Assembly: GCA_041690135.1 (NCBI GenBank)
Contig: JAWLHY010000011.1
Span: 224,001 to 288,000 of the forward strand
DNA: 64,000 bases
Direction of reading: 5' to 3'
Origin: Armatimonadota bacterium
GTDB taxonomy: Bacteria; Armatimonadota; SYMT01
Part shown: piece by piece, positions 27,312 to 62,494 of the stretch
Position numbering within the stretch: the stretch's first letter is position 1
Layout: each line of letters starts with the position of its first letter
Notes under the pieces: model-generated
What the model saw: only the letters and a program-made list of their open reading frames with translations
The model's database searches: none
What the model was told of the DNA's origin: nothing
Translations under genes and position numbers: made by a program

Positions 27312-27359
27312 GGCCGGGTTCCGCCGGATCGTCCGTTCGCAACAAGAAGGGTGTCCTTT

Positions 27360-32751: not shown

Positions 32752-33190
32752 AAAGCGGATCAACGACCTCTAGGGGACACGGCCGTGAGCCGTGCCGCGG
32801 TACTGCCGTTCCGGACGGGAGACCCTATGAGCCGATCGAAAGGACTGCCAAACGATAACCGCTACGGTTGGGCGAGTAAACTCGCGGCTGCAAACAGCGA
32901 CTGCCCAGAGGGCGCCCGCCTGCGTCGGCTGGGAACGGTGTAGCGGATACTCCTTGACGGATCCTAAGGTTTCCTGTGCGGATTGAGGCCTCGGTCTCCG
33001 TGCCGGGCCTACCGGTAAGGAGAGCACGCACGGCGGCAAATCACCCGGGTGCTTCTCCAGATTTTCATGAGTGTACGTCATGGCCGGTACCCTGTCCACC
33101 CTGGGGCTCTCGTCCCGCCCCCCGGCGTGGGGCAGCACCGGTTGCCAGGGAGGGAACCAGGACCTCTCTAGCGAATCTTCCCTTCCCGTG

Positions 33191-36058: not shown

Positions 36059-39000
36059 CGCGGACCGCTCCCACCCTCGAAGCGATGCGGGCCTCGGCGG
36101 GGTCCGGTAAGACCTACAGTCTCACCACGCGCTACCTACGCATCCTCCAGCGCGGCGAGACCCCCGACCGGGTGCTCGCGACCACCTTCACCCGCAAGGC
36201 AGCCGGTGAGATCCTGGGCCGGGTCCTCCAACGCCTGGCCGAGGCGGCGGACGCCGAAGAACCATCGACCGCCCTGGCCCGCGACCTGGGCGATCCCCGC
36301 CTGCAGCGGGACGACTTCCGGCGACAGCTCGCCGACCTCTGCCGCACGCTCCACCGGGTTTCGATCTCCACGCTGGACAGCTTCTTCAGCCGCCTCTCCC
36401 AGAGCTTCCGGCACGAGCTGCAGTTCCCGTCCGGGGCGCTGCTGATGGAGGCCGAGAGCCCCACCGCGATGCAGCTCCGCTTGGAGGCGGTGCGCGCCGT
36501 GCTGGCCGAGGGCCCGCTGGAAGAGCTGATCCAACTGCTGGACCAGCTCCAGCAGGGGCGGGCGCAGTCTTCCGTGACCCACGCCCTGGACGGGATGATC
36601 TCCCAGCTCTACGAGGTGTTCCGGCAGGCCCCGCGAGAGGCGTGGTTTGCCCTGCGCGCCCCGGAGACCCCGGACGACGAAGCGGTGGCGCGGATCCTCA
36701 CCGGGCTGGAGCGAAGCGCCGCGACCGCCACCGACAAGCGGCTCGTGAAGGCGATCCAGGGAGACGCGCAGCGCGCCCGCGACGGGGACTGGGGCGGCTT
36801 CTTGAGTAAGGGCTTGGCGCCGAAGGTGATGGAAAACCTCACCTACTACAACAAGCCGATCCCGGACGAAATCGCGATGTTGTACCACGGCCTCATCGAC
36901 CGGGGTCGGGCGGAGTTGATTCAGCGCATCCGGAGCCAGACCGAGGCCACGTACCACCTGCTCCGGCGTTTCGACCAGCACTACCGGGAGCTGCGCCGCC
37001 GGAGACGGGCGCTGCTCTTCTCCGACGTGCCGTATGCCCTCTCGGCCTTCCTGGCGGACCGGCCGCTCGAGGAAGTGGCATACCGGCTGGACGGCCGGGT
37101 CGATCACCTGTTGCTGGACGAGTTCCAGGACACCAGCCCGGAACAGTGGGAGATCCTGCGCCCCTTCGCGCGCCGGATCGCCGAGCGCTCCGCGGGAGGC
37201 GGCACGGCGACCGGCTCGCTGTTCTGCGTGGGGGACGTAAAACAGGCGATCTATGGCTGGCGCGGCGGCTGCGCGGAGATCTTCAACCAACTCGATGCGG
37301 ACCTGGGAGGGCTGGCGTGGGAGAGCACCGAGCGGAGCTATCGCTCCTCGCAGGTGGTGCTGGACGCCGTCAACCGCGTCTTCGGCACCCTGACCACCAA
37401 CCCGATCCTCAACGAGTGTGCGGTGGACGCGGAAGCATGGCAGGCCGGCTTCCAGGAGCACGTCGCCGTCAAGACGCTGCCCGGGTTCGTCGAGCTGGTC
37501 ACCTCCCCCGCCGCGCCGGGAGAGGAGGGAGAGGCGGAGGGCCCGGCGTCCGCCGGCGGTGAGGAAGTCGGCGGGGAGAGCCGGCCCGGCGGGCACGAGC
37601 AGTGCGTGGCGAAGCGGATCGCGCAACTGGCGAAGGACCACCCCACCGCCTCGATCGGCGTGCTGATGCGGACCAACGACGCTGTCCGCCGGATGATCTT
37701 CCTCCTGCAAAAGCTGAACGTCAGTGCCAGCGGCGAAGGCGGCAGCTCCGTGGACGACGACCCGGCCGTAGAGGCGATCCTCGCCGCCCTCACGCTGGCC
37801 GACCATCCGGGAAATACCGCCGCCCTGTTCCACGTCCGGAACACTCCCCTGGCGCCGCTCCTCGGATTGGAGAACGACCGCCCGGAGCACGCCGCCGAGG
37901 TGGCGCGCCGGGTCCGGACGCTGCTCCTGGTGGAAGGCTACCCGGCGGCGATCGGGGAGTGGGCCCGCCGCCTCGCCCCGGAATGCGACGTGCGGGGAGC
38001 CCAGCGCCTGGCGCAGCTCGTGGACCTGGCGGAGCTTTACGAGACCGGGGCGGGCCTGCGCCCCTCCGATTTCGTGCGGTTCGTCCGCGCCACCCCTGTG
38101 GAAGAGCCGGTCCCCGCCCGCGTCCGCGTGATGAGCATCCACAAGTCCAAGGGCCTGGAGTTCGACGTGGTGGTCCTGCCCGAACTGCACAAGAAGATCG
38201 CGGCCATCTCCCCGGTCCTCCTGGTGGATCGCCCGGCACCCACGGCGCCGATCTGCGCGGTCTACCGCTGTCCGGACAAGGAGATCCGCGCCGCCATCCC
38301 GGAGCTGCAGCAGGCGTACGCGGGCCACCGGAGCCGCGAGATCTGCGAGAGCCTTTGCCTGCTTTACGTCGCCCTGACCCGGGCCCGCAGCGCGCTCCAC
38401 CTGATCATTCCGCCCCTCCAACAGACTGAGAAGGGAGCCGTCCGCAAAGAGTCGCTCTCCCATGCCGCCCTCCTCCGGGCCGCCCTGCGCGCGCCAGACG
38501 TGGAAGAGGGCTTCGAGGGTGGGCAGGTGCTCTACCAGGCCGGAGACCCGCGCTGGGACCGGGGCACGGATCGCCGGTCCGGGCCCACCGCGGCAGCCCC
38601 CGCTCCCCCCGTGGTGCCGCTGGCCCCCATCCGCCTCGCCCCGGCCGAGGGGACCGAGCAGCGCGGCTGGCGCACGATCCGCCCATCGGACCTGGAGAAC
38701 GGCGGTCGGGTACGTGCGGCCCGGCTCCTGGAGTTGGAGGATACCGAGGCCCAGCGGTTCGGGACCCTGATCCACGCCTGGTTCGAGCAGGTGACCTGGA
38801 CCGGCGAACCCCTGCCGCCGGACGAGGAGCTGCTCCGGATCGGCGCCCGCGTCGTGCCGGATCAGGAAGAGACCTGGTATGCCGCCTCCCTAGAGGCGTT
38901 CCGCGGGATGCTGGAGCTGCCTGGCGTCCGGGATGCCCTCCAGCGCCCGGAAACGGTAGTCCCTGATGAGGAGCAAGAAGCGCCCGCCGTCGAACTCTGG

Positions 39001-39279
39001 CGCGAGCGCCCCTTCGTGGCCCGGGTCGACGGCGCCCTCATGCAAGGAATCTTCGACCGGGTGGTCCTCCACCGCCGCTCTGAGGAAGTGACCGCCGCGG
39101 AGATCCTGGACTTCAAAACCGACGAAGTCTCTTCCGACGATCTCTCCCCACTGGTCGAGACCTATCGTCCGCAACTCGAAGCCTACCGCCGCGCCCTTTC
39201 GGTTCTCCTGGACCTTCCCACCGAGAAGATCCAGGCCCGGCTGCTCCTCGTCCGCCCGGGATTAGTGGTGACGATATAG
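36055..39279 (+). CDS. addA: AddA/RecB-like UvrD helicase-nuclease
   Basis: ASAGSGKT, TFTRKAA, LDEFQDT, VGDVKQAIYGWRG, MSIHKSKGLEF, YVALTRA, GIFDR..DFKT..QLEAY. Confidence 0.88.
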   Translation: MTRTAPTLEAMRASAGSGKTYSLTTRYLRILQRGETPDRVLATTFTRKAAGEILGRVLQRLAEAADAEEPSTALARDLGDPRLQRDDFRRQLADLCRTLHRVSISTLDSFFSRLSQSFRHELQFPSGALLMEAESPTAMQLRLEAVRAVLAEGPLEELIQLLDQLQQGRAQSSVTHALDGMISQLYEVFRQAPREAWFALRAPETPDDEAVARILTGLERSAATATDKRLVKAIQGDAQRARDGDWGGFLSKGLAPKVMENLTYYNKPIPDEIAMLYHGLIDRGRAELIQRIRSQTEATYHLLRRFDQHYRELRRRRRALLFSDVPYALSAFLADRPLEEVAYRLDGRVDHLLLDEFQDTSPEQWEILRPFARRIAERSAGGGTATGSLFCVGDVKQAIYGWRGGCAEIFNQLDADLGGLAWESTERSYRSSQVVLDAVNRVFGTLTTNPILNECAVDAEAWQAGFQEHVAVKTLPGFVELVTSPAAPGEEGEAEGPASAGGEEVGGESRPGGHEQCVAKRIAQLAKDHPTASIGVLMRTNDAVRRMIFLLQKLNVSASGEGGSSVDDDPAVEAILAALTLADHPGNTAALFHVRNTPLAPLLGLENDRPEHAAEVARRVRTLLLVEGYPAAIGEWARRLAPECDVRGAQRLAQLVDLAELYETGAGLRPSDFVRFVRATPVEEPVPARVRVMSIHKSKGLEFDVVVLPELHKKIAAISPVLLVDRPAPTAPICAVYRCPDKEIRAAIPELQQAYAGHRSREICESLCLLYVALTRARSALHLIIPPLQQTEKGAVRKESLSHAALLRAALRAPDVEEGFEGGQVLYQAGDPRWDRGTDRRSGPTAAAPAPPVVPLAPIRLAPAEGTEQRGWRTIRPSDLENGGRVRAARLLELEDTEAQRFGTLIHAWFEQVTWTGEPLPPDEELLRIGARVVPDQEETWYAASLEAFRGMLELPGVRDALQRPETVVPDEEQEAPAVELWRERPFVARVDGALMQGIFDRVVLHRRSEEVTAAEILDFKTDEVSSDDLSPLVETYRPQLEAYRRALSVLLDLPTEKIQARLLLVRPGLVVTI

Positions 39280-48028: not shown

Positions 48029-48580
48029 GGCGGGGCTCCTTCCAACTCCAGCGGTGACACCGGTTGGACGCTGGAGGGTGGGGGTGGGGTTACACCCGGA
48101 AAGGGGTGTTTGTGGGCATTCGGCGTTCAGGCGTTGGGCGTTCAGGCATTGGGCGTTGGGCGTGGTGCAGGAGCGCGGACGTCCCGTCCGCCCGTGTTCG
48201 GGTGTTCGGGCACCCCTGTGGGGCGTAAATGTTCGGGTGTTCGGGTGTTCAGGCGGTGAAGTCAGGGCCTGTTCCAGGCTCACCGATCTTGTGGGGGGCG
48301 CAGACCCACCAGCCTGAACTTCCGTCGTCCTATGGGCACAAGTTCCAGGTCCGGCTGGGCCTCCTCAGCCGCTGACGCGAGGAGTTGCCGGACCCACCGG
48401 TCGATCTCGGGGCCAAGCAAGAAGGGGCTGGTCTTCCAGAAGTCCCTTGAGAGCTCACATCGATAGGCAACGCCGCCGCCCGCCTATGCGGGGTGGAGCC
48501 GATAGCCACATTTCAACTACCACCCCCCGCCGCGAGCAGACTTACTCACTCAGGTTCCGTCCAGCCCGCGTTACTCCACC

Positions 48581-49081
48581 TCAATCATTGCCAGCGACCG
48601 CATGGTATTGCCCTAGCTGTGGCAGGTACTCGACTGTCCGCAAGCCACTGCGGACGGAACTCTGTTTCGAGTTGCCTGACGGAAGCGAGCCCGATGGCAG
48701 GGTGGAGTCGTGGCTCGCACGGTACCGGAAGGCGCCGTCATTGGCTCCGGGTGCGGAACCATTTTCCTTCCAGATTTGTTTCACCCAGGTCGAGGGCGGC
48801 GTTGTATCCGGAAGCGTGAACCGGATCGTGTATAAGGATGAACCATACATATCCTTCTCCTCACTCACATAGATCAGGCGGCTCTCCGGAGGAAGCCAGG
48901 CGTAGTGACGGACCTCCTTCTGATAGAAGGCCTGGGCATCTCTCTTGTGATACCGGGGCATCCCTTGGAACGAGAGGTAAACTGCTGCTACAACAAAGGG
49001 CATCAAGAGGAAGGTGGCGGCGATAGACAGGATGGCGCCCCCTACAAGAGCCATGTCGCGCCTGGCGTGTTCGCTTATCAT
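48581..49081 (-). CDS. Hypothetical membrane-anchored protein
   Basis: N-terminal TM, lower GC. Confidence 0.55.
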   Translation of the reverse strand: MISEHARRDMALVGGAILSIAATFLLMPFVVAAVYLSFQGMPRYHKRDAQAFYQKEVRHYAWLPPESRLIYVSEEKDMYGSSLYTIRFTLPDTTPPSTWVKQIWKENGSAPGANDGAFRYRASHDSTLPSGSLPSGNSKQSSVRSGLRTVEYLPQLGQYHAVAGND

Positions 49082-49470
49082 TGGAGAGTTGCGCCTTTCC
49101 CGTGGAAGCCTCTTTCGGAGTCAGAGTCGCTTCTCGTTCCCCTCTGCGCTTAACCCCGGAGAGTGGTGCGGTTTCGGGGCCCCTCTGTGTCGAAGCCGAA
49201 CCCCTCCTGCACCAACGGGGATCAGGCTTCTACCTTACGTCTCTCTGTAGCCCTCCGGAGCTGTTTTTTTACAGGCACCAGTTCCGGGCGCTCGCCCCCC
49301 CGGCTCACGAGCGGACTGCTGTTTTCTCCCTCCCCTCCGGGGCTACGAATCGCCTCGTACCACCAGGTGGGCCGCACTGTGCAGTCTCCCGTGCAGAGCC
49401 ATCGGTTTTGCTCCTATGTAAAACACAAGAGTCGTTCGATTCAGGTACTGGCGATTCACAGGAAAGCAGT

Positions 49471-50049
49471 TCAGTTGCGCATGACGGCGACTTGCACTCT
49501 GGACCCACTGGTGGAGGGGATCGCAACTCCCGATGCGGAGGCGTTGGGCTCAATTTCCAAGAGGAAGTCACGGCGATGGGTATGTTCCTCATAGGGACAC
49601 TTGTATGAGAAGGTCAACACCGCCGTCCGCCAGCGCTGCGATCTCCTGTGCGGGCGATAGAAGAACTTCGGGACCTGCCCGGCGTGATGTACGAAACGAA
49701 CAGCACCCTTTGCGGAAGCGCTGCGGGGCACCGTCCATACACGAATGCGTATTCGGCTGGATTCATGCATGAGGCTCTGGCTTTGCCCGTTGGAATCAAT
49801 CTCATAAACGTGAAAGTCGGCTGATGGACTCGTGCTGTGGAGCGTGCCAGATCGTGTGTCTGTGGCGTCGGCATTATCATTCAGATAATCGACACCAATC
49901 CGATCAATCTGGCTGCAGGTAAATGGCACGCCGTGGGGACCGGTGGTCTTCCCACGCGCCTGTCCGGGTCGTTGATCGAACGACAAGGAAAGTGCTCCCA
50001 GCAGGCAAGATCCTACCCATAGCGCGGGCGTTGAGCGTGGCCTGAACAC
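49471..50049 (-). CDS. Hypothetical, possibly exported protein
   Basis: GGAGG + GTG at 50049; signal-like N-terminus; lower GC. Confidence 0.4.
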   Translation of the reverse strand: MFRPRSTPALWVGSCLLGALSLSFDQRPGQARGKTTGPHGVPFTCSQIDRIGVDYLNDNADATDTRSGTLHSTSPSADFHVYEIDSNGQSQSLMHESSRIRIRVWTVPRSASAKGAVRFVHHAGQVPKFFYRPHRRSQRWRTAVLTFSYKCPYEEHTHRRDFLLEIEPNASASGVAIPSTSGSRVQVAVMRN

Positions 50050-50315
50050 TTGGACCTCCGCATCCCTTTCAAGAGATTTCCTTCGTCTCAACCCGGAGTT
50101 GAACGAGAACGGCTGTGCGTCTCCCATCGGCGGGACGGTCGGGGGACGCATGCCTCCCGACCGTGTCCCCGGAACAGTCCCCGTCGAAAGAGCAAGCCGG
50201 TTCGTGAAGGGCTGTTCCGTCCAGTCGGTATCGAAACCTTCGTCTGTGTCGCTTTCCGTTCCCCTCTGCGTCCCTCTGTGTCGAAGCTTGAACCCCACTC
50301 TGGCCATTCCGGAGG

Positions 50316-50945
50316 CTACCTTCTCACCAGAAACCGCAGCACCCACAACACCCCCAGCGAACCCGCTAACAGCAGATTCACCCGCATAAGGGGATCGTGA
50401 AGCTGGAGCGCCACCCCCGTCAGGGAAGCGTGGAGGGAAGGCGCAACCCCTGCAGCAAGGGCAAGACCAGTCATGAGGACCAGAAGGCCCGGTAGGCCGG
50501 CGCGGAGGTCGGACCAGCTGGGCACCAGGGCGGCGCCGATGCTGGCCATAAGCCAGGCCGCGGCCACCATTGGGAGCGGAGTTTCGGGACGGACGAACGG
50601 GGCCAGGGCGAGCAGTGCCGCACAGCCGGCCAGGAGCGGCATGAACGAGATGAGCGGCTGGGTTACCAGTCGCCAGCGGGGCGGGTCGTGCGCCACCCAG
50701 CCCTGCCCCGCGCGCCAGAGGACCACTTCCCGCACGCGCGCCCCCACGAGCAGGCAGCCGAACACGTGCGCCAGCTCGTGAAGCGCCACACCGGGGGCGA
50801 AGAAGAGCGCGTACAGCCAACGTTGCCGCCCGGCCAGGTGCGCGGCCGCCTGTCCCAGGAGACGGGCGAGCAGCAGGACGAGGAGGGTGGCCACAACCAC
50901 GGTTGTCAGCGGCGCGCGTGCGGGATCAACAGGTAACTCGGGCAC
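50316..50945 (-). CDS. Membrane protein with HExxH, M50-like metallopeptidase
   Basis: APGVALHELAH; G.V.H; LIS..PL; PS.SD; multiple TMs. Confidence 0.8.
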   Translation of the reverse strand: MPELPVDPARAPLTTVVVATLLVLLLARLLGQAAAHLAGRQRWLYALFFAPGVALHELAHVFGCLLVGARVREVVLWRAGQGWVAHDPPRWRLVTQPLISFMPLLAGCAALLALAPFVRPETPLPMVAAAWLMASIGAALVPSWSDLRAGLPGLLVLMTGLALAAGVAPSLHASLTGVALQLHDPLMRVNLLLAGSLGVLWVLRFLVRR

Positions 50946-51009
50946 GAGAATGCCCTTGGCCGCTCACGCCGGCTCTCCCTCCTGTCCCATTCGTTCACTT
51001 ACCTGTTGC

Positions 51010-51654
51010 TTAACGCGTTCCTCGACTACGACGGTTCCGGAACGCCGCCAGCCCCATCAGGGCCGGCAGAAAGAGAAGGACCGACGAAGGCTCCGGCACG
51101 GCCGATCCTTCCGTTTGGGTGAAGTTGTAGGCCTCTCGCACCGTGTCGTCGGGCATCTGCATCGACAGGACGCGGTTATCCGAGAACCGGACGAAGATCG
51201 TGCTGTTGGGAGCCGCGCCGTTGTTGAAGAAGATGGTACGGAAGTCTACCTGCGCATCCACGGAATCGGGGTCCATGTCGGTGCGGAAGGCGAACTCCTT
51301 TCCCGCCCCCAACCCGGTGAACGTGTAGCGGAACTCATCGCTCCGCACGGTGGCGCCGTCTCCGGAACTGTCCGGCGCATGGAGCACGAACCCGACACCG
51401 GGGCTGTGTGTCTCGTTCTGTCCCGAGTCGAAGTTGAAGGCGGGATTGCCGATGCCTACCTTGAGCTCCACGATCTCGAAGCCGGGAGAGGAGATGTTGG
51501 TGAGCTTCCAGGCGGGCGCGTCGGCCGCGGACACCGTATCGATCCCGGGCGGCAGGAACAGGTCAAGGGAGTAGCCGATGGTCTGCGCCTGGGCCGGAGC
51601 GGAGGAGAGCGCCAGAGCCAGGAAGGCAAGACAGATTACTGGACTTCGTTTCAT
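51010..51654 (-). CDS. PEP-CTERM sorting domain protein
   Basis: Signal peptide; AVPEPSS + TM + RNRRSR. Confidence 0.88.
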   Translation of the reverse strand: MKRSPVICLAFLALALSSAPAQAQTIGYSLDLFLPPGIDTVSAADAPAWKLTNISSPGFEIVELKVGIGNPAFNFDSGQNETHSPGVGFVLHAPDSSGDGATVRSDEFRYTFTGLGAGKEFAFRTDMDPDSVDAQVDFRTIFFNNGAAPNSTIFVRFSDNRVLSMQMPDDTVREAYNFTQTEGSAVPEPSSVLLFLPALMGLAAFRNRRSRGTR

Positions 51655-51679
51655 GAACGGTCTTCCTATTCCTTGGAAA

Positions 51680-52462
51680 TTAGCGGGGACGCCGATGGAG
51701 GTACCGGGACCCTACCAATCCCACGAGAACCGGTAGGAAGAGAAGGACGGCCGAAGGCTCCGGCACGGCCGGGGTTTCGGAGCCGGCGCCCTGAATGGAA
51801 AAGGACGCGGTCATGGTTCCCAGGTTGTCATCGTAGTAACCGGGCGGACCGTTGAAGGCAAAACCATCGGCAAACCCCAGGAAGAGACGGGTGGCGCCGT
51901 CGGGTACGTGGAAGGCCTGGATAGCTCCCGCGCCGGTGCCGCTACGGCCGTCACCGATGAAGAACGTCTGGCCGATTACCGGCGCCAGTTGGGTGAACCC
52001 GCTATTTCCGGTGAAGTCCAGGCGGGCGGGAGCCGGAGCAACGGGAGCATCATCCGTCAGAAAGACGCCGGTCAGAAAGCCGACTCGGTCCAGGGCGGTG
52101 ATGCCGGAAATGCCACCCACCGAATCGAGGTCGGTGAACTCGCGACTTGCGGTCCCGGGGCGCCCATCCGGACCGTTTGCGGGCGTCAGTGGATCATCTT
52201 TACAGCAGTCGAAAGTGCCGCTGACGCTGGTGAATTGGAGAATCCGCCCCGTTCCCGGGTTGAGGGAATAGGAGGGTGGTAGGGTCCCTCCTCCGCCGCC
52301 GGCGGGAGCCGGGGGAAGCGTGAGACCGGCGCCAAAAATGTTGGAGGTGGCCTGAATGGCCTGACCCGAATAGGTCTGCGCCGCAGCGGGGCTCGCCGCC
52401 ATCAACGCGCAGCAGGCCAGTGAGAAGAAGGTCCGGACCAGAGAGCCGTGAGGATGTGTCAT
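51680..52462 (-). CDS. PEP-CTERM sorting domain protein
   Basis: Signal peptide; FFIG..VPDGATRLFLG.AD..YDDN.G; AVPEPSA + TM + RRPR. Confidence 0.88.
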   Translation of the reverse strand: MTHPHGSLVRTFFSLACCALMAASPAAAQTYSGQAIQATSNIFGAGLTLPPAPAGGGGGTLPPSYSLNPGTGRILQFTSVSGTFDCCKDDPLTPANGPDGRPGTASREFTDLDSVGGISGITALDRVGFLTGVFLTDDAPVAPAPARLDFTGNSGFTQLAPVIGQTFFIGDGRSGTGAGAIQAFHVPDGATRLFLGFADGFAFNGPPGYYDDNLGTMTASFSIQGAGSETPAVPEPSAVLLFLPVLVGLVGSRYLHRRPR

Positions 52463-52577
52463 TCGGAAGAGTTCCTTTCGCAGCCGACACCAACAGAGGA
52501 TGCGAAAGGTTGCCGAATGTAGCCACGTCCAGGAACTGCTTTTTTTGCCCTGTCTCCACAGAAGAAGGGAAGGTCTG

Positions 52578-55500
52578 TTACGGGTTGGCCGGCCGCGCTC
52601 GCACAAAAGGGGAAGTCAGCGGGAAGCTGGCGTCGGAGATGCTCACCTGCTGTCGCGGACCATCCAACTCGTGAACCCGCCGGGCAACATATTCCGCGAG
52701 CGTGTTGAAGCGGACGAAAGGAGTGGATGGGTCCGCGTGCCCCCGCAACCCTTCGAGCAAGGCGTAAGTGAACACACCGTGACCCAGACGAGCCCGCTCC
52801 TGGGCCAGTTGGTCCGGAGTGGCGCTTGCCAGGAGCACCACCCCCGATGCCGGGCTCATCATCCGCTCGGCCCGGACCGCCGGAACCGGGATCTTGCCGG
52901 AGTGGCAGGTATCGGCGAACACGATCACCTGCCGCGCGCTCAGCTTCGGTCCGAGCCATTCTGCGAGTTGGGCGCCCGTGAGAGTGGTTTCCAGGAGCCG
53001 TCGGTTAGAGGAAACATCCAGCTCATAAGTGCCGAAGCAGTAGTTCCCGGCCTCGTCCCGGAGACCATGCCCGGCCAGGTAAAGGACCACCGTGTCTTCG
53101 GGTCGTGAGCGAGCCTTGATCGCTTTCAGCCGCGCACGCAGGGCATTCCCGGTAGCCTGCGCATCCGTGAGGCAGTCCACTTCCACCCGCGTGTACAGTT
53201 CCTTCTGCCCCGCAAACACTGAAGCGACGGCGCGAGCATCGCCGGCAGGGAACGCCAGCGAATAGGCCGGATCCCGGTAACGAGAGACCCCGGCGCACAG
53301 GACGAAGAGCCGTCCCCGTACGGCGGGCGCTCCCGGCCGGCGGATGAGGATCTCGACGGGATCGGCATTGTAGCCCTGGTCGTCGAACACGGTGGCTCGC
53401 ACCAGGATCAACTCTTCACCGGGCGGCAAGGGCACCGCCAGGCGCGAAATCTGATAGGCTCGATGCCGCGGGGGGAATGCCCCAGCATCCACGCCGCGGG
53501 GCAACGACGCCGGCCGCCGCTCCGCCAGGTCGGCAATAGCGCCGGAGAGCGCTTCCGGGGCCGAGCGGTCATCCAACAACACAGGACGCCCGTTCACAAA
53601 GACCTCGGCGGATCTCACACTCCTATCGTCACTGGCAAGAAGGGTCAGTTTCACCTCCCTTGCATCGGCCGCCACGGTCATCTCCGCATCCAGGAATCGA
53701 CACGCGGGGGGGATATCGCCGGAGCCCAGAGGTGGGGCGGGTTCCCATACCCCCGCCAGCGCCTGGCGAACCGAGCGAGGGCGCCGGAAGCGGTTTTCGA
53801 AGCGCGCGGCCGGGTAGAGCTGGTCTTCCGCTCGCCAGGAAACCAGTTCGCCGCTTCCGGGGGACCCATCATAGTGGCCGTTGGCGGTGACCGCCATCCA
53901 CTCCGTACGCCGCTCCGTGCGCAGCGCGGTGAGCGCCACCCAGCGTTCACCGGCGGCATCGAGCTCGTTCCAGATGCGAACTGAACCGTCCGGAGCCGCC
54001 GCCGCCAACCGGAGGCTCGATAAGTCGCGAGTAAACTGTGGAAACTTCATTCCCAACCCACCCATGCGCAGCACCGGCTTTCCGGCGCCCGTGGCAATGT
54101 CCCACAACATCGGGGGAGCGCCGGGAAAGGTGGCGACGATGCTTTTTGCGTCACGCGATATGGCCAGGATGGGCGGCGAAATGGAGGTCGTGGTGAGGAT
54201 GTGATTCCCGTCGGGCGTCCAGGCGAACTCGGCGAGCCGGGGATGGGGAATGGAGCGCCGGACCTCACCAGTCCGCGCGTCCCATAGGCAAAGAGAGGTA
54301 CGCAACATGCCGCGCTCGGGGGGTAGCATCAGGCTACCGGCCAGGGCCTTGCTATCGGGGCTCCACTGGATGGACCCACCGCCCGCAAGTGTGTGCGTCA
54401 ACTTCCAGCCCTGTGCCGCTGCTCCGGTCGTCTCCCAGATCCATACCCGCCCGCCGCCGGTAGCGGCGAAGAAACGACCGTCGGGGCTCCAGGTGACCCG
54501 TCCCACTGTCTCTGAAAAGTTCCTCAGCCCGGAGAGACGCTGCCCGGTATCCGGATCCCAAAAGCTGACGGGCGCATCCCGGCTGACGATCGCCAGGATC
54601 TTTCCGTCCGGGCTCCACGCGGCGATACTTGCCTCGGGGGCGCGGGTGGCCGCTGGAGGTGGGAGTGGCGGGCCGGCAGCCCCCTTCAAGGTTTGCACCG
54701 GCCGTAATGTTTGCACGTCCCAGAGCTCGATCATTCCGTCGTCCGTTACGGCCGCCAGAACCTTACCGTCGGGCCGCCAGGTCAACGCAAGCACCGTCCG
54801 CTCCAGGTGGCTGAGGCTGCCTCGCAATTCTCCTGTCCGGGTATCCCAGATCCGGGGGGGCGCACCGTTGCCGGCGGTCGCCAGTTCACGACCATCCGGA
54901 GACCAGGCCACGGCCGTTAGTTCCAGGCTATGCCCCCCCAGGATCTCGGCCTTCTGACCCTTGAGTGTCTCCCATAAGCGGATGCGCGCGTCCGTGGTCG
55001 CGACGGCAAGCTGCCGGCCATCCGGACTCCAGTCGAGGGCGTAGAACGAGTCAGGTGTTCCCCCCTGAAAGCGCTCTTGTTCTTCCGCACCGGTTTCCGA
55101 GTTCCAGAGCCGGACGGTTCCGGCATGGGTTACCGTCGCGACCCAGGGTCGAGAGGGATGCCAGACCACCCTGGCGACAAAGCAGTCCTCCTGCGTCAGG
55201 ACCCGCACCCGTTTGCCGGCAACCGCCTCCCACTGTTCGACCCCCCCGCGATAGGTGGGCGCCCGCTCCCCGGCGAACTGTCCGAACAGGCCCGTGCCCA
55301 CGGCCAGGGACCGGCCATCCGGGCTCCACGCGATTCCCCGGATCGTCTGCGTGCATTCTCCCGTCCAGCGCAGCTCCCACGTCGCGGTGTCCCAGACACA
55401 AAGTTTGTTCCCACCGCCGTCGGTCGCGAGTTGGCCTCCATCCGGGCTCCACGCAACTGCTCCGCCGCCCCCGCGGGTAGAATCCAGAACTCGCTGCTGC

Positions 55501-56042
55501 TCGCCGGTCTTCGCGTTCCAGATGTGGGTAGCTCCACCCCCCGAAGAGGCCAGCAAGGTGCCGCGAGGGTGCCAGGCGACCCCATTCACCGCGCTGGCGC
55601 GCCCCATCATTACCCGCAGTTGCCGCTGCTGCCGCGGATCCCAGATGCGGATGGTGCCTTCATAGCCGCCGGATGCCAGGAGCGCCCCGTCCGGGCTCCA
55701 GCTTACCGACCGCACCCCCATTTCGTGACCGCGCAGCACCGCGTAGGTCCGTCGCTTCCGCACGTCCCAGAGCCGGAGGGTGCGGTCCCGGCTCGCCGAG
55801 GCCAGGCGATCTCCCTGGGGGTGCCAGGCGAGATCGAGGATCGCCGAGCCGTGACCGGATTGGAGCAACAGCTCCGGTTGACCGGAGGCTTCCCGCACCG
55901 GGGTACCGGCAACTCCGGTACGGGCGGCTCCCGTGGTGAGGAGAAGCAGCAGAAGCAGCCAGAAGCCGGGACGGAAGGGGGCCAGCCGGTCCTGGATTGA
56001 CGGTGATTCGCAGACAGGCATGCCGGGTCTCCTGACATTCAC
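52578..56042 (-). CDS. WD40-repeat protein with C-terminal caspase (peptidase C14) domain
   Basis: Hydrophobic N-terminus; ~14 WSPDG/GH..WD repeats; YLAGHG and FADTCHSG His/Cys dyad; GHGVFTYALLEGL. Confidence 0.92.
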   Translation of the reverse strand: MNVRRPGMPVCESPSIQDRLAPFRPGFWLLLLLLLTTGAARTGVAGTPVREASGQPELLLQSGHGSAILDLAWHPQGDRLASASRDRTLRLWDVRKRRTYAVLRGHEMGVRSVSWSPDGALLASGGYEGTIRIWDPRQQRQLRVMMGRASAVNGVAWHPRGTLLASSGGGATHIWNAKTGEQQRVLDSTRGGGGAVAWSPDGGQLATDGGGNKLCVWDTATWELRWTGECTQTIRGIAWSPDGRSLAVGTGLFGQFAGERAPTYRGGVEQWEAVAGKRVRVLTQEDCFVARVVWHPSRPWVATVTHAGTVRLWNSETGAEEQERFQGGTPDSFYALDWSPDGRQLAVATTDARIRLWETLKGQKAEILGGHSLELTAVAWSPDGRELATAGNGAPPRIWDTRTGELRGSLSHLERTVLALTWRPDGKVLAAVTDDGMIELWDVQTLRPVQTLKGAAGPPLPPPAATRAPEASIAAWSPDGKILAIVSRDAPVSFWDPDTGQRLSGLRNFSETVGRVTWSPDGRFFAATGGGRVWIWETTGAAAQGWKLTHTLAGGGSIQWSPDSKALAGSLMLPPERGMLRTSLCLWDARTGEVRRSIPHPRLAEFAWTPDGNHILTTTSISPPILAISRDAKSIVATFPGAPPMLWDIATGAGKPVLRMGGLGMKFPQFTRDLSSLRLAAAAPDGSVRIWNELDAAGERWVALTALRTERRTEWMAVTANGHYDGSPGSGELVSWRAEDQLYPAARFENRFRRPRSVRQALAGVWEPAPPLGSGDIPPACRFLDAEMTVAADAREVKLTLLASDDRSVRSAEVFVNGRPVLLDDRSAPEALSGAIADLAERRPASLPRGVDAGAFPPRHRAYQISRLAVPLPPGEELILVRATVFDDQGYNADPVEILIRRPGAPAVRGRLFVLCAGVSRYRDPAYSLAFPAGDARAVASVFAGQKELYTRVEVDCLTDAQATGNALRARLKAIKARSRPEDTVVLYLAGHGLRDEAGNYCFGTYELDVSSNRRLLETTLTGAQLAEWLGPKLSARQVIVFADTCHSGKIPVPAVRAERMMSPASGVVLLASATPDQLAQERARLGHGVFTYALLEGLRGHADPSTPFVRFNTLAEYVARRVHELDGPRQQVSISDASFPLTSPFVRARPANP

Positions 56043-56049
56043 GAAGAGG

Positions 56050-57489
56050 CTATTCGGATTTCAGCACCTGACGGCGCAGCTGCCGCAGGCCATGCAAGAG
56101 TGCAGTCGCCTCACGGGAGCCGGGGTTCTCCCGGACCAGGGACTGGAAGGCCTCCTCGGCTTCGTCCAGCAACCCGGCCCGCCACGCCAGCACGCCGCGC
56201 GTCACCAGTGAGCCGTCTCCGGCGGTCACCGCCCGCTCCAATTCCGCCGCCCGGTTCGCTTCCAGAATGACAAAACGGGCTTCCGGCTGGCCCGTACGCG
56301 GCGTCACCCGGAGGCGGGTCTCGCCGGCGTAGGCGGCGACTTCCCACTGGTAGGTCCGGCCGCGGGGCAGCGAATTTGCTGGCTGCCACCGGGTAGCTTT
56401 GAGCCTTGGACTGGTTTCGAGTGCGAACCCCTCCAGGTCGAAGATGGTGACGATGTAGCCCTCCGCCCCCACCAGGGGAACCCACGCAAGTTCCGGCCGG
56501 TCGTCCCGGACGGCGGTTCCCACCGGGCTCTTGAGGGCGAATGCCGGTGAGCCGGGCGGAGGCACGAAACGCGCCGTGCCTTCCTCCGCATCACGGCGCG
56601 GCGCTCCCGTCAATTGCGCCAGCAGGACCGGCGGTTCCAGGCGGCGGGTCTTCCAGGCGCGCTCAACCTCCGGCAGGACCGCCTGCGGGACGAGGCGCAC
56701 GAGGCGCCCCTCCGCGTCTCGGACCAACTCTCCGTTGCCGTCCCGGACGACCGTGGCGGGGCGAGTTTCGCCGGCGCCCGGCACCGACCTGGGAATCGGT
56801 GACCGCGCGAGGCTGATCTCTAGATCCTCGAGGCGCTCCCGCAGCCGGTCCATTTCCTGCGACTGGCGCTCCCGGCTCGCCACTTCCCCCACGCGTCGGC
56901 GATCGACCGCCGCCAGCTCCTTTTTCACCTGCGCCAGCTCGCGCGAGAGACGCTCGGCTTCTTCCCGGGCGGCAGTGCCCTCCTTGCGGGCCTGTGCCAG
57001 CTCACGACCCGTGGGGGTGCCGATCTCGGCGGGGAGAGGAATGCGGAGGAGAGTCACCACCAGCACGGCGGCCGCGGCGGCCGGTAGTGCCAGGCGGCAC
57101 CAGGACCAAACGGAGGTCCGGCTGGGCCGCGATGAGGATCCGGGGAGCGGAGCTCCCTCCAACTCTTCCCGGAAGGCGGCGAGGTCCCGCACTTCCGCCA
57201 CGCATGCAGGGCAGACTTCTAGATGACTCCGGACCGTCTCCAGGTCCGCGGCAACGAGGGCGCCATCGACGTAATCCGCCAGTTGCTCGAAATCCAGGTG
57301 TTCCGGAGGCAGCCCGTCTTCCCGAAAGACTGACGGCAAGGCGGTCACGGCCGTTTCGTGCGGCACCCGAACCTGCTCCCGGCAAGCGGTGCAAACGGCC
57401 AGGTGATCATCCATCGCCAGCAAGTCCACGGGCGATGCCTGTCGGCGCCGGTAGCTTTCGAGTTGTTCGGGAGTCAGGTGGGCCTGCAC
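56050..57489 (-). CDS. Anti-sigma factor: two zf-HC2 fingers, TM, coiled coil, Ig-like and TPR-like C-terminus
   Basis: HLAVCTAC and HLEVCPAC (HxxxCxxC); TM LALPAAAAAVLVVTLL; YQWEV; GLLDEAE..L..ENP. Confidence 0.85.
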   Translation of the reverse strand: MQAHLTPEQLESYRRRQASPVDLLAMDDHLAVCTACREQVRVPHETAVTALPSVFREDGLPPEHLDFEQLADYVDGALVAADLETVRSHLEVCPACVAEVRDLAAFREELEGAPLPGSSSRPSRTSVWSWCRLALPAAAAAVLVVTLLRIPLPAEIGTPTGRELAQARKEGTAAREEAERLSRELAQVKKELAAVDRRRVGEVASRERQSQEMDRLRERLEDLEISLARSPIPRSVPGAGETRPATVVRDGNGELVRDAEGRLVRLVPQAVLPEVERAWKTRRLEPPVLLAQLTGAPRRDAEEGTARFVPPPGSPAFALKSPVGTAVRDDRPELAWVPLVGAEGYIVTIFDLEGFALETSPRLKATRWQPANSLPRGRTYQWEVAAYAGETRLRVTPRTGQPEARFVILEANRAAELERAVTAGDGSLVTRGVLAWRAGLLDEAEEAFQSLVRENPGSREATALLHGLRQLRRQVLKSE

Positions 57490-57533
57490 GGATCACTCCT
57501 GGCGGCTCTCGGGGATTGGACGGGAAAAGAAGT

Positions 57534-58658
57534 CTATTTGAGCCACGGGTAGTCCCACCCGAGCTTGAGGAGGCGCCGCCGCAGCCGGTCGCGGGCATTC
57601 TGCCGCAGAACGATCACCTGGCGCGGCTGCAGATGCAGCCGTTCCGCGACGCGGCGATCGTCCAGGGGCAGGTCGGGCCAGAGCCCGGCCAACTCCTCCG
57701 CCGGCATCTCCAGCAAGGCCGCGATCTCGCGCAGAGAGGCCAGACCCTCCGCGGGCAGGAGGCGGATGACTCCCTCCGAGAGAGTCAACACGAGCGCGGT
57801 CCGCTGGCGAAGGGGGAGTAGGCCGAGCTCGAACCAGAGATCACGGAGAAATTCCCGCACTTCCAACTGCCGGACAAACTCGCCGCGGGCATCCGATACC
57901 CGTTCGAGAGGATGCACCTCGTGCGGGGATTCCGGCTCGATGCGGGTGGCTTCGCGGACCTGCCGAATCTCGGCGGATACCTTGATCAGTCGCGGTAGCA
58001 GCAGCGGAGTATCCAGCCACCGGAACAGCCGCTCCATAAAAGGGAGCAGGGCGAGGCCGACCGGGTCCTCGTCGGGAAAGATCCAGCCAGAGCACTGCTG
58101 AGAGTTCGCTTCCAGTTGAGTACGGCGTTTCAGTGCGTCGCTTTCGGGCCGGGGGCTCTTCCCTTCTGTCCGCCACCATCGCCAACCCGTCCATCGATCG
58201 GCGCCGTCCCCGCGCCACAGCGTCAAGGCGGTCCGGTCCCCGCACCGGGTGAGCAGATAGCGGATGCGATTGGAGAGGTAAGTCCACGCGGGTCGCTCTC
58301 GCCGGAGCCTGGCGGTGACCGTCTGCCCCGCAAGCAGCGCCGCCACGGCTTCCACGTCCCGGATCGCTTCACCCGTCCCGCTCCGCGCCTCTCCGAGCCG
58401 CCGGATGAGCCGCAACAGCGTCTCGCTCCGCAGGTCGTCCAGGTCATCGGCGTGATTTCCGCTCCGATCGCGGCCGGTACATCCCCACTCCTTGCGGAGG
58501 ATGCCTTCGATCCGGGGCGTGAGCGCCTTCAGGAGTGCCTCCAAACAGGCGGGTGCGTCGCCATCCGAGGCCCGCAGGTAGGACGCCAAAAGCTCACCTG
58601 GAAGGGGTGAAGCGCGAGCATTCTCGACTCCGGATTTGCGCCGCAGGAGGTCTAACAT
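57534..58658 (-). CDS. Enlarged ECF-like sigma factor
   Basis: Region-2-like DDLDDLRSETLLRL; region-4-like LPLRQRTALVL..LREIAALL..VAERL..ARDRLRR; upstream of a zf-HC2 gene; start uncertain. Confidence 0.72.
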   Translation of the reverse strand: MLDLLRRKSGVENARASPLPGELLASYLRASDGDAPACLEALLKALTPRIEGILRKEWGCTGRDRSGNHADDLDDLRSETLLRLIRRLGEARSGTGEAIRDVEAVAALLAGQTVTARLRRERPAWTYLSNRIRYLLTRCGDRTALTLWRGDGADRWTGWRWWRTEGKSPRPESDALKRRTQLEANSQQCSGWIFPDEDPVGLALLPFMERLFRWLDTPLLLPRLIKVSAEIRQVREATRIEPESPHEVHPLERVSDARGEFVRQLEVREFLRDLWFELGLLPLRQRTALVLTLSEGVIRLLPAEGLASLREIAALLEMPAEELAGLWPDLPLDDRRVAERLHLQPRQVIVLRQNARDRLRRRLLKLGWDYPWLK

Positions 58659-58760
58659 TCGCCGGGTAGCCAGGCACGAGGGTAGTGGAGGAAGCAATGG
58701 ATGGGGCGGTTCCTGGTAGGAGTATTTCTTTCATGCCTGGGCTGCAATCCTCCCAGAGCA

Positions 58761-59246
58761 TCATGACGCTCCCGATACCCGGCAAGAAGTACGCAGAGTC
58801 ACCACACCCTCCAGCGCATGGCCGAGCTCCTGGAGTAAAGGACCGGCACAGGCCTCCTCCACGGCCGGAAACAGCTCCCGCTCCTCGAAGCGGATGTGGT
58901 CGTGGAGCCGGCTTGCGGTCTCGGCGACGAGCTCGGCTAGCCGCGGATCGTCCGCCGTCTCCGCGGCGGCCAACTCCCGGGCAAGGCGGCGGAGGGTGAC
59001 GTGCTCCACCAGGGTCCGCACGAGGAGCGGATGGTCATCCGCCAGCGCCCGGGCGCACTCGGGGAGCAGGACCTCCTCCTCGGCCCGGAAGTGCGGGAGG
59101 ATCTCTCCTTCCCACTCTCGCAGGAACTCCCGCACGGTTTCCCGCAGCGGCCGCCGGCTCTCCGACGCCAGGCGCAGGTTCCGTGCCGCGACCAGGCCGT
59201 AATGATGTTGTTCGGAGAGGTCCCTCAACTCCGGGCTCCGCTTCAT
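58761..59246 (-). CDS. Hemerythrin-like domain protein
   Basis: LS.QHH, HFRAEE, EH, HIRFEERELFP. Confidence 0.88.
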   Translation of the reverse strand: MKRSPELRDLSEQHHYGLVAARNLRLASESRRPLRETVREFLREWEGEILPHFRAEEEVLLPECARALADDHPLLVRTLVEHVTLRRLARELAAAETADDPRLAELVAETASRLHDHIRFEERELFPAVEEACAGPLLQELGHALEGVVTLRTSCRVSGAS

Positions 59247-59635
59247 CCGCTCTTCTTCCCTTCCGGGGCAATGGTCAACAGGAACACGGCATCCTGGAGA
59301 GCCAGCACCGCATGCCGCCGACGGGCGGCCAGGGTCAGCAACTCTCCGGGGTGAAGGTCCACGCTTTCCTCACCGACCTGGAACCGCACCGCTCCTTCCA
59401 GCACGTGGACGGTGATGGGTCCCGGCGCCTGGTGCTCCAGCAGCTCCGCTCCGGCCCGCATGGCCTGCAAGACCACGCGCAGCTCCGCGTTCTTCACCAG
59501 CAGCACGCCGTTGCGGCCGTTCTCCCCGTACTCCGGCTCCTCGCGCAGGGTCTCCAGGGTCGCGTTCAGGTCCACCACGTGGGGCGCCTCTTCCTCCGGG
59601 TGCAGTTGCTGCATGCGGGCTTCCGCCGTTGCCAT
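59243..59635 (-). CDS. Cupin domain protein
   Basis: EHQAPGPITVHVLEG..HAV; overlaps hemerythrin gene by 4 nt. Confidence 0.88.
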   Translation of the reverse strand: MATAEARMQQLHPEEEAPHVVDLNATLETLREEPEYGENGRNGVLLVKNAELRVVLQAMRAGAELLEHQAPGPITVHVLEGAVRFQVGEESVDLHPGELLTLAARRRHAVLALQDAVFLLTIAPEGKKSG

Positions 59636-61529: not shown

Positions 61530-61570
61530 CCAGGTGGAGAGCGGACCGCACCCGCTTTCCGATAGAACCA

Positions 61571-61713
61571 GACGCCTAATCCTGCGAAGGAACGGGGGAA
61601 CCACTCTGTTGGGGCGAAGGAGGGTTCAGGCAGCGACAACGCCGCCGGGACCGTCCCGGGTAGCTCTTCTCACCCGAGCCCGTCAGCTAACCTCGTCGGC
61701 GTGGCGCGAAGAG
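61571..61713 (+). ncRNA. c-di-AMP riboswitch (ydaO/yuaA class)
   Basis: ACGCC-TAAT-CCT(GCGA)AGG-AACGGGGGAACCA..TTGGGGCGAA..CGGGT-AGCTCTTCTC-ACCCG-AGCCCGTCAGCTAACCTCGTC-GGCGT..GAAGAG; P1 and the CTCTTC/GAAGAG pseudoknot are both present. Confidence 0.92.
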
Positions 61714-61772
61714 TCCAGCAAAGCGCCCCTTCCGGACAGCGCCGTCCGGGTAGCGCCTGCCGCATTCGACCC

Positions 61773-61803
61773 GCCACGCAGCCGCGTGGCCTTTTTGTTG
61801 TTT
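61773..61803 (+). terminator. Riboswitch expression-platform terminator
   Basis: GCCACGC-AGCC-GCGTGGC-CTTTTTGTTGTTT. Confidence 0.8.
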
Positions 61804-61847
61804 GCGGTGGAAGTGGGGTCGCCTGCGTTTCCCACGGAGATGTAAGG

Positions 61848-62078
61848 ATGCTGTTCGGCACCAAGGAGCGGTCCGCGACCGCTCGGGTCGTTAGCGAAGA
61901 TGCCGTCCTGTTGGGTCAGGATTTCCTGTTCGTCAACCATTCCGTCCCGCTTCCCGATGCGGAGCTGCGGTCGGCGGTCCCTCCCACCGATGCGGGGGAC
62001 TGGCTCCTGGAATTACATAAGGAAGGCGGCGGCGTGGTGCGCGTGCTGTTCGCCGAAGAAGACGAGGAGGAAGAGTGA
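61848..62078 (+). CDS. Small acidic hypothetical protein (76 aa)
   Basis: GGAG upstream; GC3-rich; ends EEDEEEE; stop overlaps next ATG (TGATG). Confidence 0.7.
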   Translation: MLFGTKERSATARVVSEDAVLLGQDFLFVNHSVPLPDAELRSAVPPTDAGDWLLELHKEGGGVVRVLFAEEDEEEE

Positions 62079-62494
62079 TGGCCCTCCCGGGCACGGGACC
62101 TTCTCCCGCCTCTTCGCCCCGGGGTGAGTTTCCACCGGAACCGTTCCGGTTGGAGATCACCGGCGACGGCCCGCGGATCACCGCCTCCGTAACCGGCCCT
62201 CTGGACGTGGAACATACCCCGACCTTCCTGGCGCGAGTGCGACTCCGGTGCCATCCCGAGTGCCGGGTAGCGGTCGATCTCAGCGGCGTGCCGTACCTGG
62301 ACAGCACGGGCGTGAGGGGACTCCTCGCCCTGAAACGGGAACTGGAAGAGCGCCACGGGGAGCTCTGCCTGATCGTCTCGAGGGGGAGCCGGGTGGAGTG
62401 GATCCTCCGCCTGCTGCAGATGGAACAGCAACTGGGGACCCGCCCGGAGCCCGAGGCCCCGGTAGATGAGCCGGACCTGCTGCGCGCGAATTGA
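62078..62494 (+). CDS. STAS-domain anti-sigma factor antagonist
   Basis: VTGPLD, VAVDLSGVPYLDSTG (phospho-Ser retained), VEWILRL. Confidence 0.88.
   Translation: MALPGTGPSPASSPRGEFPPEPFRLEITGDGPRITASVTGPLDVEHTPTFLARVRLRCHPECRVAVDLSGVPYLDSTGVRGLLALKRELEERHGELCLIVSRGSRVEWILRLLQMEQQLGTRPEPEAPVDEPDLLRAN

Follow-up and report, generated by a model that had tools for sequence, protein, structure and literature searches.

Does an exported caspase-type protease control a sigma factor through the anti-sigma factor encoded between the two? The question is raised by a locus in a 64,000-nt stretch of DNA from an Armatimonadota bacterium (contig JAWLHY010000011.1, positions 224,001-288,000; this whole stretch is called the window below, and all coordinates are positions in it). 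Between 50316 and 58658, six open reading frames (ORFs) follow one another on the minus strand, co-oriented and separated by short gaps, exactly where a preliminary description of the locus had placed them (Table 1). They encode, in this order, a sigma-like protein, an anti-sigma factor, a WD40-repeat protein with a caspase domain, two PEP-CTERM proteins and a membrane protein with an HExxH motif, and the preliminary description had taken all six for parts of one signalling system. We found that three of them belong together. The conserved unit consists of the sigma factor, an anti-sigma factor with two zinc-binding motifs and a clan-CD protease that carries an export signal and a repeat domain; it recurs across phyla, and the window holds a variant in which a WD40-C14 protease takes the place of the TPR-CHAT protease found in most relatives.

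The 374-aa product of the first gene had been called an enlarged sigma factor of the extracytoplasmic function (ECF) kind. It had no match in a Pfam scan, and its alignment with TIGR02937 remained below the cut-off (E 2.4e-5, 24 bits vs 42.9) while covering the whole profile, up to position 164 of 165, across a long gap. A word-index search returned only two relatives and an exhaustive HMMER search was required to recover the family. With a limit of E<=1e-3 it yielded 1654 cluster representatives, and with E<=1e-10 there were 1196, almost all of them 330-400 aa in length. When 81 sequences out of the best 150 relatives were aligned (alignment A1), 78 matched TIGR02937. Pfam recognized Sigma70_r2 in 28 of these 81, Sigma70_r4_2 in 3 and Sigma70_r3 in 2, and left 53 without any match. 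The consensus of the alignment displays a DAED-like region 2.2, an LPxRQR region 4.1 and TRQQVINLRKSARERL in region 4.2. The AlphaFold2 (AF2) model of the window protein had a mean predicted local distance difference test (pLDDT) score of 89.1, and the 50 PDB matches listed by a fold search with this model were all sigma-containing entries, at E>=0.05; none of the listed matches reached E<=0.001, and TM-scores were low, as is to be expected of a flexible protein made of several domains.

As judged by this family-level evidence, the window protein is a member of the sigma-70/ECF-type family, and the worry that it might lack a sigma fold was not borne out. It differs from a canonical two-domain ECF factor. 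A recognizable sigma2 domain (regions 2.1-2.4) and a sigma4 domain with the helix-turn-helix (HTH) of region 4.2 are both present, but the minimal build, in which these two domains are joined by a short linker in ~170-220 aa, is exceeded by a folded middle domain and by a helical insertion of ~40 aa within sigma4. The sole match of the middle domain in a profile search of PDB sequences was a weak likeness to the N-terminal domain of the RNA polymerase delta subunit (E 0.008). Of the two HTH-like segments that had been noted at the outset, one is indeed the region 4.2 HTH; the other corresponds to the sigma4 insertion, which lies between region 4.1 and this HTH. The family is large, abundant in soil Acidobacteriota and left unannotated by Pfam, which matters for reading the regulatory capacity of soil bacteria that are hard to culture.

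To which genes is this sigma family linked in other genomes? Contigs representing one genome per species were scanned with the sigma alignment, which gave 446 pattern matches, 415 of them encoding a relative, and the best 79 loci were kept. These come mostly from Acidobacteriota (Blastocatellia, Pyrinomonadaceae, Bryobacterales and Thermoanaerobaculia), and also from Chthoniobacterales/Verrucomicrobiae, Chthonomonadales and Abditibacteriales. By tblastn, a homologue of the anti-sigma factor was found directly downstream of the sigma gene in 76 of the 79 loci, which bears out the pairing of these two genes; its N-terminal part was matched in 75 loci and its periplasmic part in 70. The whole WD40-caspase was matched in 4/79 loci and its caspase domain in 2/79. 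The two PEP-CTERM proteins, the HExxH protein and a hemerythrin encoded upstream were matched in none of the 79.

The position held by the WD40-caspase in the window is most often held by another caspase-superfamily protease. A called anti-sigma ORF with at least 600 bp of sequence beyond it was available in 60 of the 79 loci, and in 44 of these 60 an ORF of at least 550 aa started within 1.5 kb. According to Pfam, the first large ORF after the anti-sigma gene was a TPR-CHAT protein in 37 of these 44 cases, an S8 subtilase in 3, an NHL protein in 1, a histidine kinase in 1 and without match in 2. A BLAST search of all ORFs with CHAT domains identified CHAT-like ORFs in 51/79 loci at E<=1e-5 and in 48/79 at 200 bits or more; the latter, strong class was present in 35 of the 43 loci that had at least 3.5 kb on both sides of the sigma/anti-sigma pair. 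Most of the strong CHAT ORFs (41/48) are found downstream of the pair in convergent orientation; the others are co-oriented with it, 5 upstream and 2 downstream. For 45 of the 48, the distance from the pair falls between -94 and +759 bp. As the flanks extended for as much as 10 kb on either side, this clustering serves as an internal control against chance. All 37 of the CHAT ORFs next to the anti-sigma gene keep the catalytic His and Cys, and 32 of these had a signal-like N-terminus in a crude hydropathy test, three of the five exceptions being cut by contig ends. An independent replacement was seen in a locus from Chthonomonadales (L005), where a Peptidase_C14 protein (E 5.7e-26), encoded 2 kb downstream of the pair, with a clear signal peptide and an intact FSGHG/DACRN dyad, stands in for the CHAT protein.

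The expectation that the triad would be conserved was thus upheld for the sigma factor, the anti-sigma factor and a protease of the caspase superfamily, be it CHAT or C14. Two branches of this superfamily, on two repeat scaffolds, occupy one and the same slot next to an anti-sigma factor whose periplasmic domain is conserved, and this argues for a functional partnership. That the trio recurs in soil bacteria belonging to several phyla suggests a signalling system, linked to a protease, that has so far received little study.

Two further features of these neighbourhoods were observed. Many of the exported TPR-CHAT neighbours start, after the signal peptide, with a conserved segment, A..Y...D......LWS.KSP, in the N-terminal ~100 residues (L001, L003, L006, L013, L022-L024, L027, L044, L053, L069, L077 and others). 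In L023, the protein matches SnoaL_3 at this segment (E 4.1e-6), which suggests that an NTF2-like small-molecule-binding module may precede the TPRs. In L070, a 331-aa ORF (12956-13948, minus strand) that adjoins a short sigma ORF aligns with no more than the first ~90 profile positions of CHAT (E 1e-11); decay or mis-assembly of a CHAT gene may explain it.

The anti-sigma factor of the window is a 479-aa protein that had been credited with two zf-HC2-type motifs, a transmembrane segment and a large extracytoplasmic part, and all three were recovered. Pfam zf-HC2 matched residues 68-96 (E 1.2e-7), and NCBIfam anti-sigma models matched residues 14-38 and 63-108. The sequence shows another HxxxCxxC motif at residues 29-36, which is kept across the family. 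In an alignment of 47 sequences (A2), H4, C33, C36, H64, H89, C93 and C96 were invariant and H29 was at least 90% conserved, so two complete tandem HHCC sites (H4/H29/C33/C36 and H64/H89/C93/C96) are a family trait. The pattern of a zinc-binding anti-sigma (ZAS) domain, HxxxCxxC with a fourth ligand upstream, is therefore found twice. The His of the N-terminal MSEHL (residue 4, nt ~57478-57480), invariant in 47/47 sequences, probably completes the first zinc site as its fourth ligand, and this would tightly fix the true start codon of the gene. The AF2 model (pLDDT 82.7) predicts the succession of domains given in Table 1, and a fold search with it returned MtxA (4z29, C-terminal domain, E 1.1e-5) together with numerous FN3 domains. 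No fused relatives of 840-2395 aa were found in a search for them, which is weak evidence.

The third protein had been described as a signal-bearing WD40 protein with about 14 repeats and an intact caspase His/Cys dyad. The WD40 match is very strong (E 8.7e-66, residues ~55-700); 12 blades show a clear W-x-P-D/Q/R-G motif and about two more, degenerate, were seen by eye, so that a total of ~14 repeats is plausible. Peptidase_C14 (PF00656) matched residues ~918-1132 well above its cut-off (E 2.5e-13, 50.7 bits vs 21.4), and NF047832 matched below its own (E 1.1e-22). Both members of the dyad, H992 and C1046, are in place, and among 69 relatives the Cys is invariant and the His at least 90% conserved. 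We found 191 relatives in all, several of which are named "caspase family protein" or "WD40 repeat protein" in their source. In the crude Kyte-Doolittle hydropathy test, an N-terminal hydrophobic segment like that of the window protein was detected in 104 of the 120 listed relatives, typically followed by a conserved P-E-L-x-L-Q-x-G-H, which is the start of the first blade. Because this segment recurs so widely, predicted export is best read, from hydropathy, as a feature of the WD40-caspase family, in keeping with the signal that had been claimed for the window protein.

How do these findings compare with what is known of anti-sigma proteolysis? In canonical regulated intramembrane proteolysis of anti-sigma factors, as in RseA/DegS/RseP, MucA/AlgW and, in cell-surface signalling, Prc, the site-1 proteases known so far (DegS/AlgW, Prc, CtpA) all belong to the serine type, unless the anti-sigma factor cleaves itself. 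To our knowledge, no caspase-superfamily cysteine protease has been demonstrated to act in trans as a site-1 protease. The anti-sigma factor of the window resembles the canonical ones in being a predicted single-pass protein with a periplasmic domain, the loss of which would open the way to site-2 cleavage. In type III-E CRISPR systems, the TPR-CHAT protein Csx29 of the craspase reportedly cuts Csx30 and frees an ECF sigma factor. The parallel is a repeat-bearing protease of the caspase superfamily connected with the release of an ECF-type sigma factor, a release that is hypothetical in our case. Yet, craspase is cytoplasmic and RNA-guided and works on a soluble inhibitor, whereas the window protease bears an export signal, its candidate substrate is a membrane anti-sigma factor and no cas genes are adjacent. 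A scan of 34 ORFs of the window, which did not include a search for CRISPR arrays, yielded no Cas or cyclic-oligonucleotide-based antiphage signalling (CBASS) gene.

The closest relative in print is DdvA-DdvS of Myxococcus, in which a ZAS domain, a transmembrane helix and a periplasmic TPR-CHAT module are fused in one anti-sigma factor (PMC11506125). The authors of that paper propose that DdvA is its own site-1 protease, acting ahead of RseP, cleavage itself not having been observed, and DdvA-like fusions occur mainly in Myxococcota (PMC11506125). DdvA and the window system share a zinc-binding anti-sigma domain, a single transmembrane helix, a clan-CD His-Cys module on the periplasmic side (predicted in our case) and an ECF-type sigma partner. 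They differ in that DdvA is a single polypeptide with TPR and CHAT domains, whereas the window protease is a separate, presumably exported protein with WD40 and C14 domains, and the anti-sigma factor keeps an FN3/TPR-like periplasmic domain of its own. Furthermore, the window anti-sigma factor has two zinc motifs and its sigma partner belongs to the enlarged ~360-aa family found mainly in Acidobacteriota.

Another parallel is ECF54, a sigma group whose conserved neighbours include genes for subtilase, TPR-CHAT and CarboxypepD_reg proteins and which is described as lacking an anti-sigma factor and as 100% actinobacterial (PMC7826278, supplement); CHAT is mentioned nowhere in the main text of that paper. 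Proteolytic control has been suggested for it (PMC8999054, PMC7826278). ECF54 is alike in having subtilase and TPR-CHAT genes beside an ECF sigma gene, and unlike the present family, which has an anti-sigma gene in 76/79 loci and belongs to other phyla. We considered, and rejected, the identity of our family with ECF54 on these two counts; the separation relies on the description of ECF54. In our own set, S8 subtilase genes lie beside the pair in L002 (12962-17149, plus strand), L048 (9446-13822, plus strand) and L063 (12385-14184, minus strand). In L002 and L048, the subtilase is signal-bearing and ~1400 aa long, and the CHAT gene has moved upstream, co-oriented, which echoes the subtilase and CHAT context of ECF54.

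A survey of prokaryotic metacaspases published in 2012 already reported WD40 as the commonest partner domain, N-terminal helices that are likely signal peptides, and metacaspase-sigma-70 operons in Myxococcus and other genera (PMC3501461). In the parts consulted, this survey recorded co-occurrence only and defined no anti-sigma partner, sigma family or mechanism (PMC3501461). The statement in the preliminary description that no such system had been characterized must accordingly be amended, three precedents being in print: DdvA-DdvS (PMC11506125), ECF54 (PMC7826278) and the metacaspase-sigma operons (PMC3501461). No description of the split trio or of the sigma family was found in the full-text literature as consulted, and later ECF groups could cover the sigma family. 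The system described here is a split and widespread version, with WD40-caspase or TPR-CHAT, of a protease-linked anti-sigma signalling for which related precedents exist.

We hypothesized that the three genes form an envelope signalling module in which the protease acts on the anti-sigma factor, a reading that we favour tentatively and to which we would grant slightly less than an even chance. The divergent ECF-type sigma factor would be held at the membrane by the single-pass anti-sigma factor, bound through the predicted tandem zinc-binding cytoplasmic domain of the latter. The exported clan-CD cysteine protease would carry a repeat-type ligand-binding domain, made of WD40 repeats here and of TPRs in most relatives; a signal bound by this domain would activate the protease, which would cut the periplasmic part of the anti-sigma factor and thus serve, in trans, as site-1 protease. 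Degradation would then be completed by cytoplasmic proteases and by a site-2 protease whose gene would lie outside the locus, and the sigma factor would be released. The data establish what the three genes are, that they have signal-like N-termini where export is expected, that the catalytic dyads are intact and that the genes stay linked across phyla. We infer the direction of action, from protease to anti-sigma factor, as well as the cleavage, the ligand and the regulon; the role of site-1 protease was assigned by the logic of regulated intramembrane proteolysis and the precedent of the fused DdvA.

Several observations weigh against this hypothesis. The protease gene is convergent in 41/48 loci and is there not co-transcribed with the sigma/anti-sigma pair; 8 of the 43 fully flanked loci have no strong CHAT ORF, and Pfam scans of these show no common substitute; and a C14 caspase is encoded in only 2/79 of the sigma loci. 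Sensing could be done by the anti-sigma factor itself, which has a conserved periplasmic domain of its own. Pfam gave no credible site-2 protease in the locus. No promoter motif that would define a regulon is shared: k-mers in 62 regions and dyads in 75 regions upstream of sigma genes did not rise above shuffles, GC-rich words excepted, so that the regulon of the sigma factor is not definable in this way. For DdvA too, cleavage was not observed by its authors in the consulted parts of their report, in which dyad mutants have no phenotype in unperturbed cells and autoproteolysis is undetected (PMC11506125). Co-folding of anti-sigma residues 156-479 (A2) with the caspase end of the protease (residues 693-1147 in the numbering of the 1147-aa form; alignment A3) scored 0.00 twice; controls were not run, and the result counts neither way.

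We considered the possibility that the protease is the output of the pathway rather than its trigger: the FN3/TPR-like domain of the anti-sigma factor would be the sensor, and the released sigma factor would induce effectors of envelope remodelling, nutrient proteolysis or defence, namely the exported protease and, in the present locus, perhaps also the PEP-CTERM proteins. This is the chief competitor of our hypothesis, and we regard it as unlikely. It would account for the protease being a separate, convergent transcription unit in most loci, and for the conservation of the periplasmic anti-sigma domain in 70/79 loci whether the neighbouring protease is CHAT, C14 or S8; moreover, the ECF classification states, in the part consulted, that conserved neighbours of ECF genes may be targets or regulators (PMC7826278). 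Yet, the sigma upstream regions yielded no common motif by which the protease could be placed in the regulon, and the combination of repeats and protease, with a resting dyad, resembles the signal-gated DdvA and craspase and not bulk degradative enzymes. In the window, furthermore, the protease gene is co-oriented and starts 7 nt after the anti-sigma gene, so that the protease would be made together with its supposed regulators. Alternatively, the coupling might be indirect, the protease cutting another envelope protein or a foreign one and the anti-sigma factor sensing the product or the state of the protease, while a different site-1 protease degrades the anti-sigma factor. RseA/DegS signalling, which senses unfolded porin tails, offers a model for this. 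The FN3 and TPR-like folds predicted in the anti-sigma factor are protein-binding periplasmic folds, and the subtilases next to the CHAT gene in L002, L048 and L063 indicate that more than one protease is possible; but no candidate for a third-party substrate is conserved in the neighbourhoods, and the fused architecture of DdvA favours direct action, in cis or in trans. We consider indirect coupling improbable. Finally, WD40-caspases are common in conflict and cell-death systems, and one from such a separate system might have landed beside a sigma/anti-sigma pair by coincidence. They form a widespread family of their own, with the 191 relatives mentioned above, the best NCBIfam match of the window protein (below cut-off) is to an "EACC1-associated" caspase type, and a C14 caspase is as rare in the sigma loci as stated above. 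A clan-CD protease nevertheless fills the slot in 35/43 fully flanked loci, L005 has an exported C14 protease, and in the window the 7-nt gap, the shared orientation and the absence of a terminator-like site between the genes point to one operon. We hold coincidence to be very improbable.

Returning to the hypothesis of a protease that acts on the anti-sigma factor, its generalization would be that exported TPR-CHAT or WD40-C14 proteins are ligand-gated trans-acting site-1 proteases dedicated to double-zinc anti-sigma factors and enlarged ECF-like sigma factors in at least Acidobacteriota, Verrucomicrobiota and Armatimonadota, with an interchangeable repeat domain that sets the ligand. We see this as possible rather than probable. 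If true, it would make caspase-type proteolysis a general and previously unrecognized entry into bacterial regulated intramembrane proteolysis. Even for DdvA, the one studied case, it is a proposal that a caspase-like protease starts the degradation of an anti-sigma factor. The naturally split version has separate genes for the protease and its putative substrate, hundreds of natural variants and two combinations of sensor and protease; as the split genes can be expressed, mutated and mixed independently, they make a cleaner test bed than the fused DdvA.

The three remaining genes of the locus do not belong to the conserved module. Both PEP-CTERM proteins have a visible signal peptide and a VPEP motif followed by a transmembrane segment and a basic tail (VPEPS, transmembrane segment and RRPR in the product of 51680-52462), and from these features both are genuine. 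TIGR02595 exceeded its cut-off for 51010-51654 only (20.5 bits vs 16), and the Pfam PEP-CTERM model reached just E 0.03 for 51680-52462. No exosortase turned up among the 34 window ORFs in general scans. The HExxH protein, which had been proposed to be an M50-like protease that finishes the cleavage, contains a HELAH motif and matched DUF3267 (E 0.18) and Peptidase_M50B (E 0.39) below cut-off, with no PDZ match; despite its HELAH it thus lacks the M50 family match expected of a site-2 protease, and that assignment was not sustained. Atlas feature matches, which scored 0.92 for a cluster without a name and 0.89 for one of M50B, are leads only. Nothing beyond gene position speaks for this finishing role or for the PEP-CTERM proteins as cargo, and the failure of tblastn to find any of the three genes in the 79 related loci speaks against them as regular members of the system. 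They are local neighbours, which may be co-transcribed targets in this genome, given the gaps of 115, 25 and 64 nt around them.

Table 1. Features of the locus, in window positions (nt) or protein residues
Feature	Position	Strand	Remarks
Sigma-like gene	57534-58658	-	374 aa from ATG; TTG at 58697 is a possible start of a longer ORF
Sigma2 domain	residues ~20-138		Sigma protein
Middle domain	residues ~139-235		Sigma protein; ~100 aa, folded, two strands and several helices
Sigma4 domain	residues ~257-365		Sigma protein; region 4.1 LPLRQR at nt 57792-57818, region 4.2 HTH at nt 57582-57653
Anti-sigma gene	56050-57489	-	479 aa; gap to sigma gene 44 nt
Zinc anti-sigma motifs	57382-57405 and 57202-57225	-	Anti-sigma gene
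Two helical bundles, then disordered linker	residues 1-112		Anti-sigma protein, AF2 model
Single transmembrane helix	residues 134-148, nt 57046-57093		Anti-sigma protein
Long helical hairpin or coiled coil	residues 160-229		Anti-sigma protein, AF2 model; predicted periplasmic; followed by a small conserved element
FN3-like beta sandwich	residues ~319-408		Anti-sigma protein, AF2 model
TPR-like helical end	residues ~411-477		Anti-sigma protein, AF2 model
WD40-caspase gene	52578-56042	-	1154 aa (1147 aa with start at nt 56021); gap to anti-sigma gene 7 nt
Signal-like hydrophobic segment	residues 27-40, nt 55923-55964	-	N-terminus of WD40-caspase
Middle domain	residues ~700-905		WD40-caspase
Caspase domain	residues ~909-1132		WD40-caspase
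Catalytic dyad	His992 (AGHG), nt 53064-53075; Cys1046 (DTCHSG), nt 52896-52913	-	WD40-caspase
PEP-CTERM protein 1	51680-52462	-	260 aa from ATG; signal peptide; tail at nt 51683-51766
PEP-CTERM protein 2	51010-51654	-	214 aa; signal peptide; tail at nt 51013-51099
Polytopic membrane protein with HELAH	50316-50945	-	HELAH at nt 50766-50780; candidate zincin of the DUF3267/M50B kind

A coding signature, with a GC content at third codon positions (GC3) of 0.76-0.80, was found in the five longest-frame ORFs retained by the GC filter; ORF 51680-52606 did not pass this filter. A scan of 49800-59400 for terminators and promoters found nothing above chance, and no terminator-like sites in the intergenic gaps. 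Directly downstream of the HExxH gene, at 48400-50300, the GC content is lower (0.586-0.616 vs ~0.65-0.70 around) and no ORF passes the GC3 filter.

Elsewhere in the window, two more sigma-70 genes, with regions 2, 3 and 4 and group-3-like, were found at 13276-14235 and 30116-30964, both on the plus strand, which makes these 64 kb rich in sigma factors. A cyclic di-AMP riboswitch (RF00379) was detected at 61563-61715 on the plus strand (82.5 bits, gathering score 38, E 1.1e-17); it immediately precedes small ORFs on the plus strand (61701-62078) and an ORF with a STAS domain (62075-62494). Proteins with a prepilin-type N-methylation motif and DUF1559, a kind that is expanded in Planctomycetota and relatives, are encoded at 18027-18893 and 27351-28010 on the plus strand. 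A large AddAB-like gene pair with PD-(D/E)XK nuclease and UvrD-helicase domains, unrelated to the module, occupies 33071-39279 on the plus strand.

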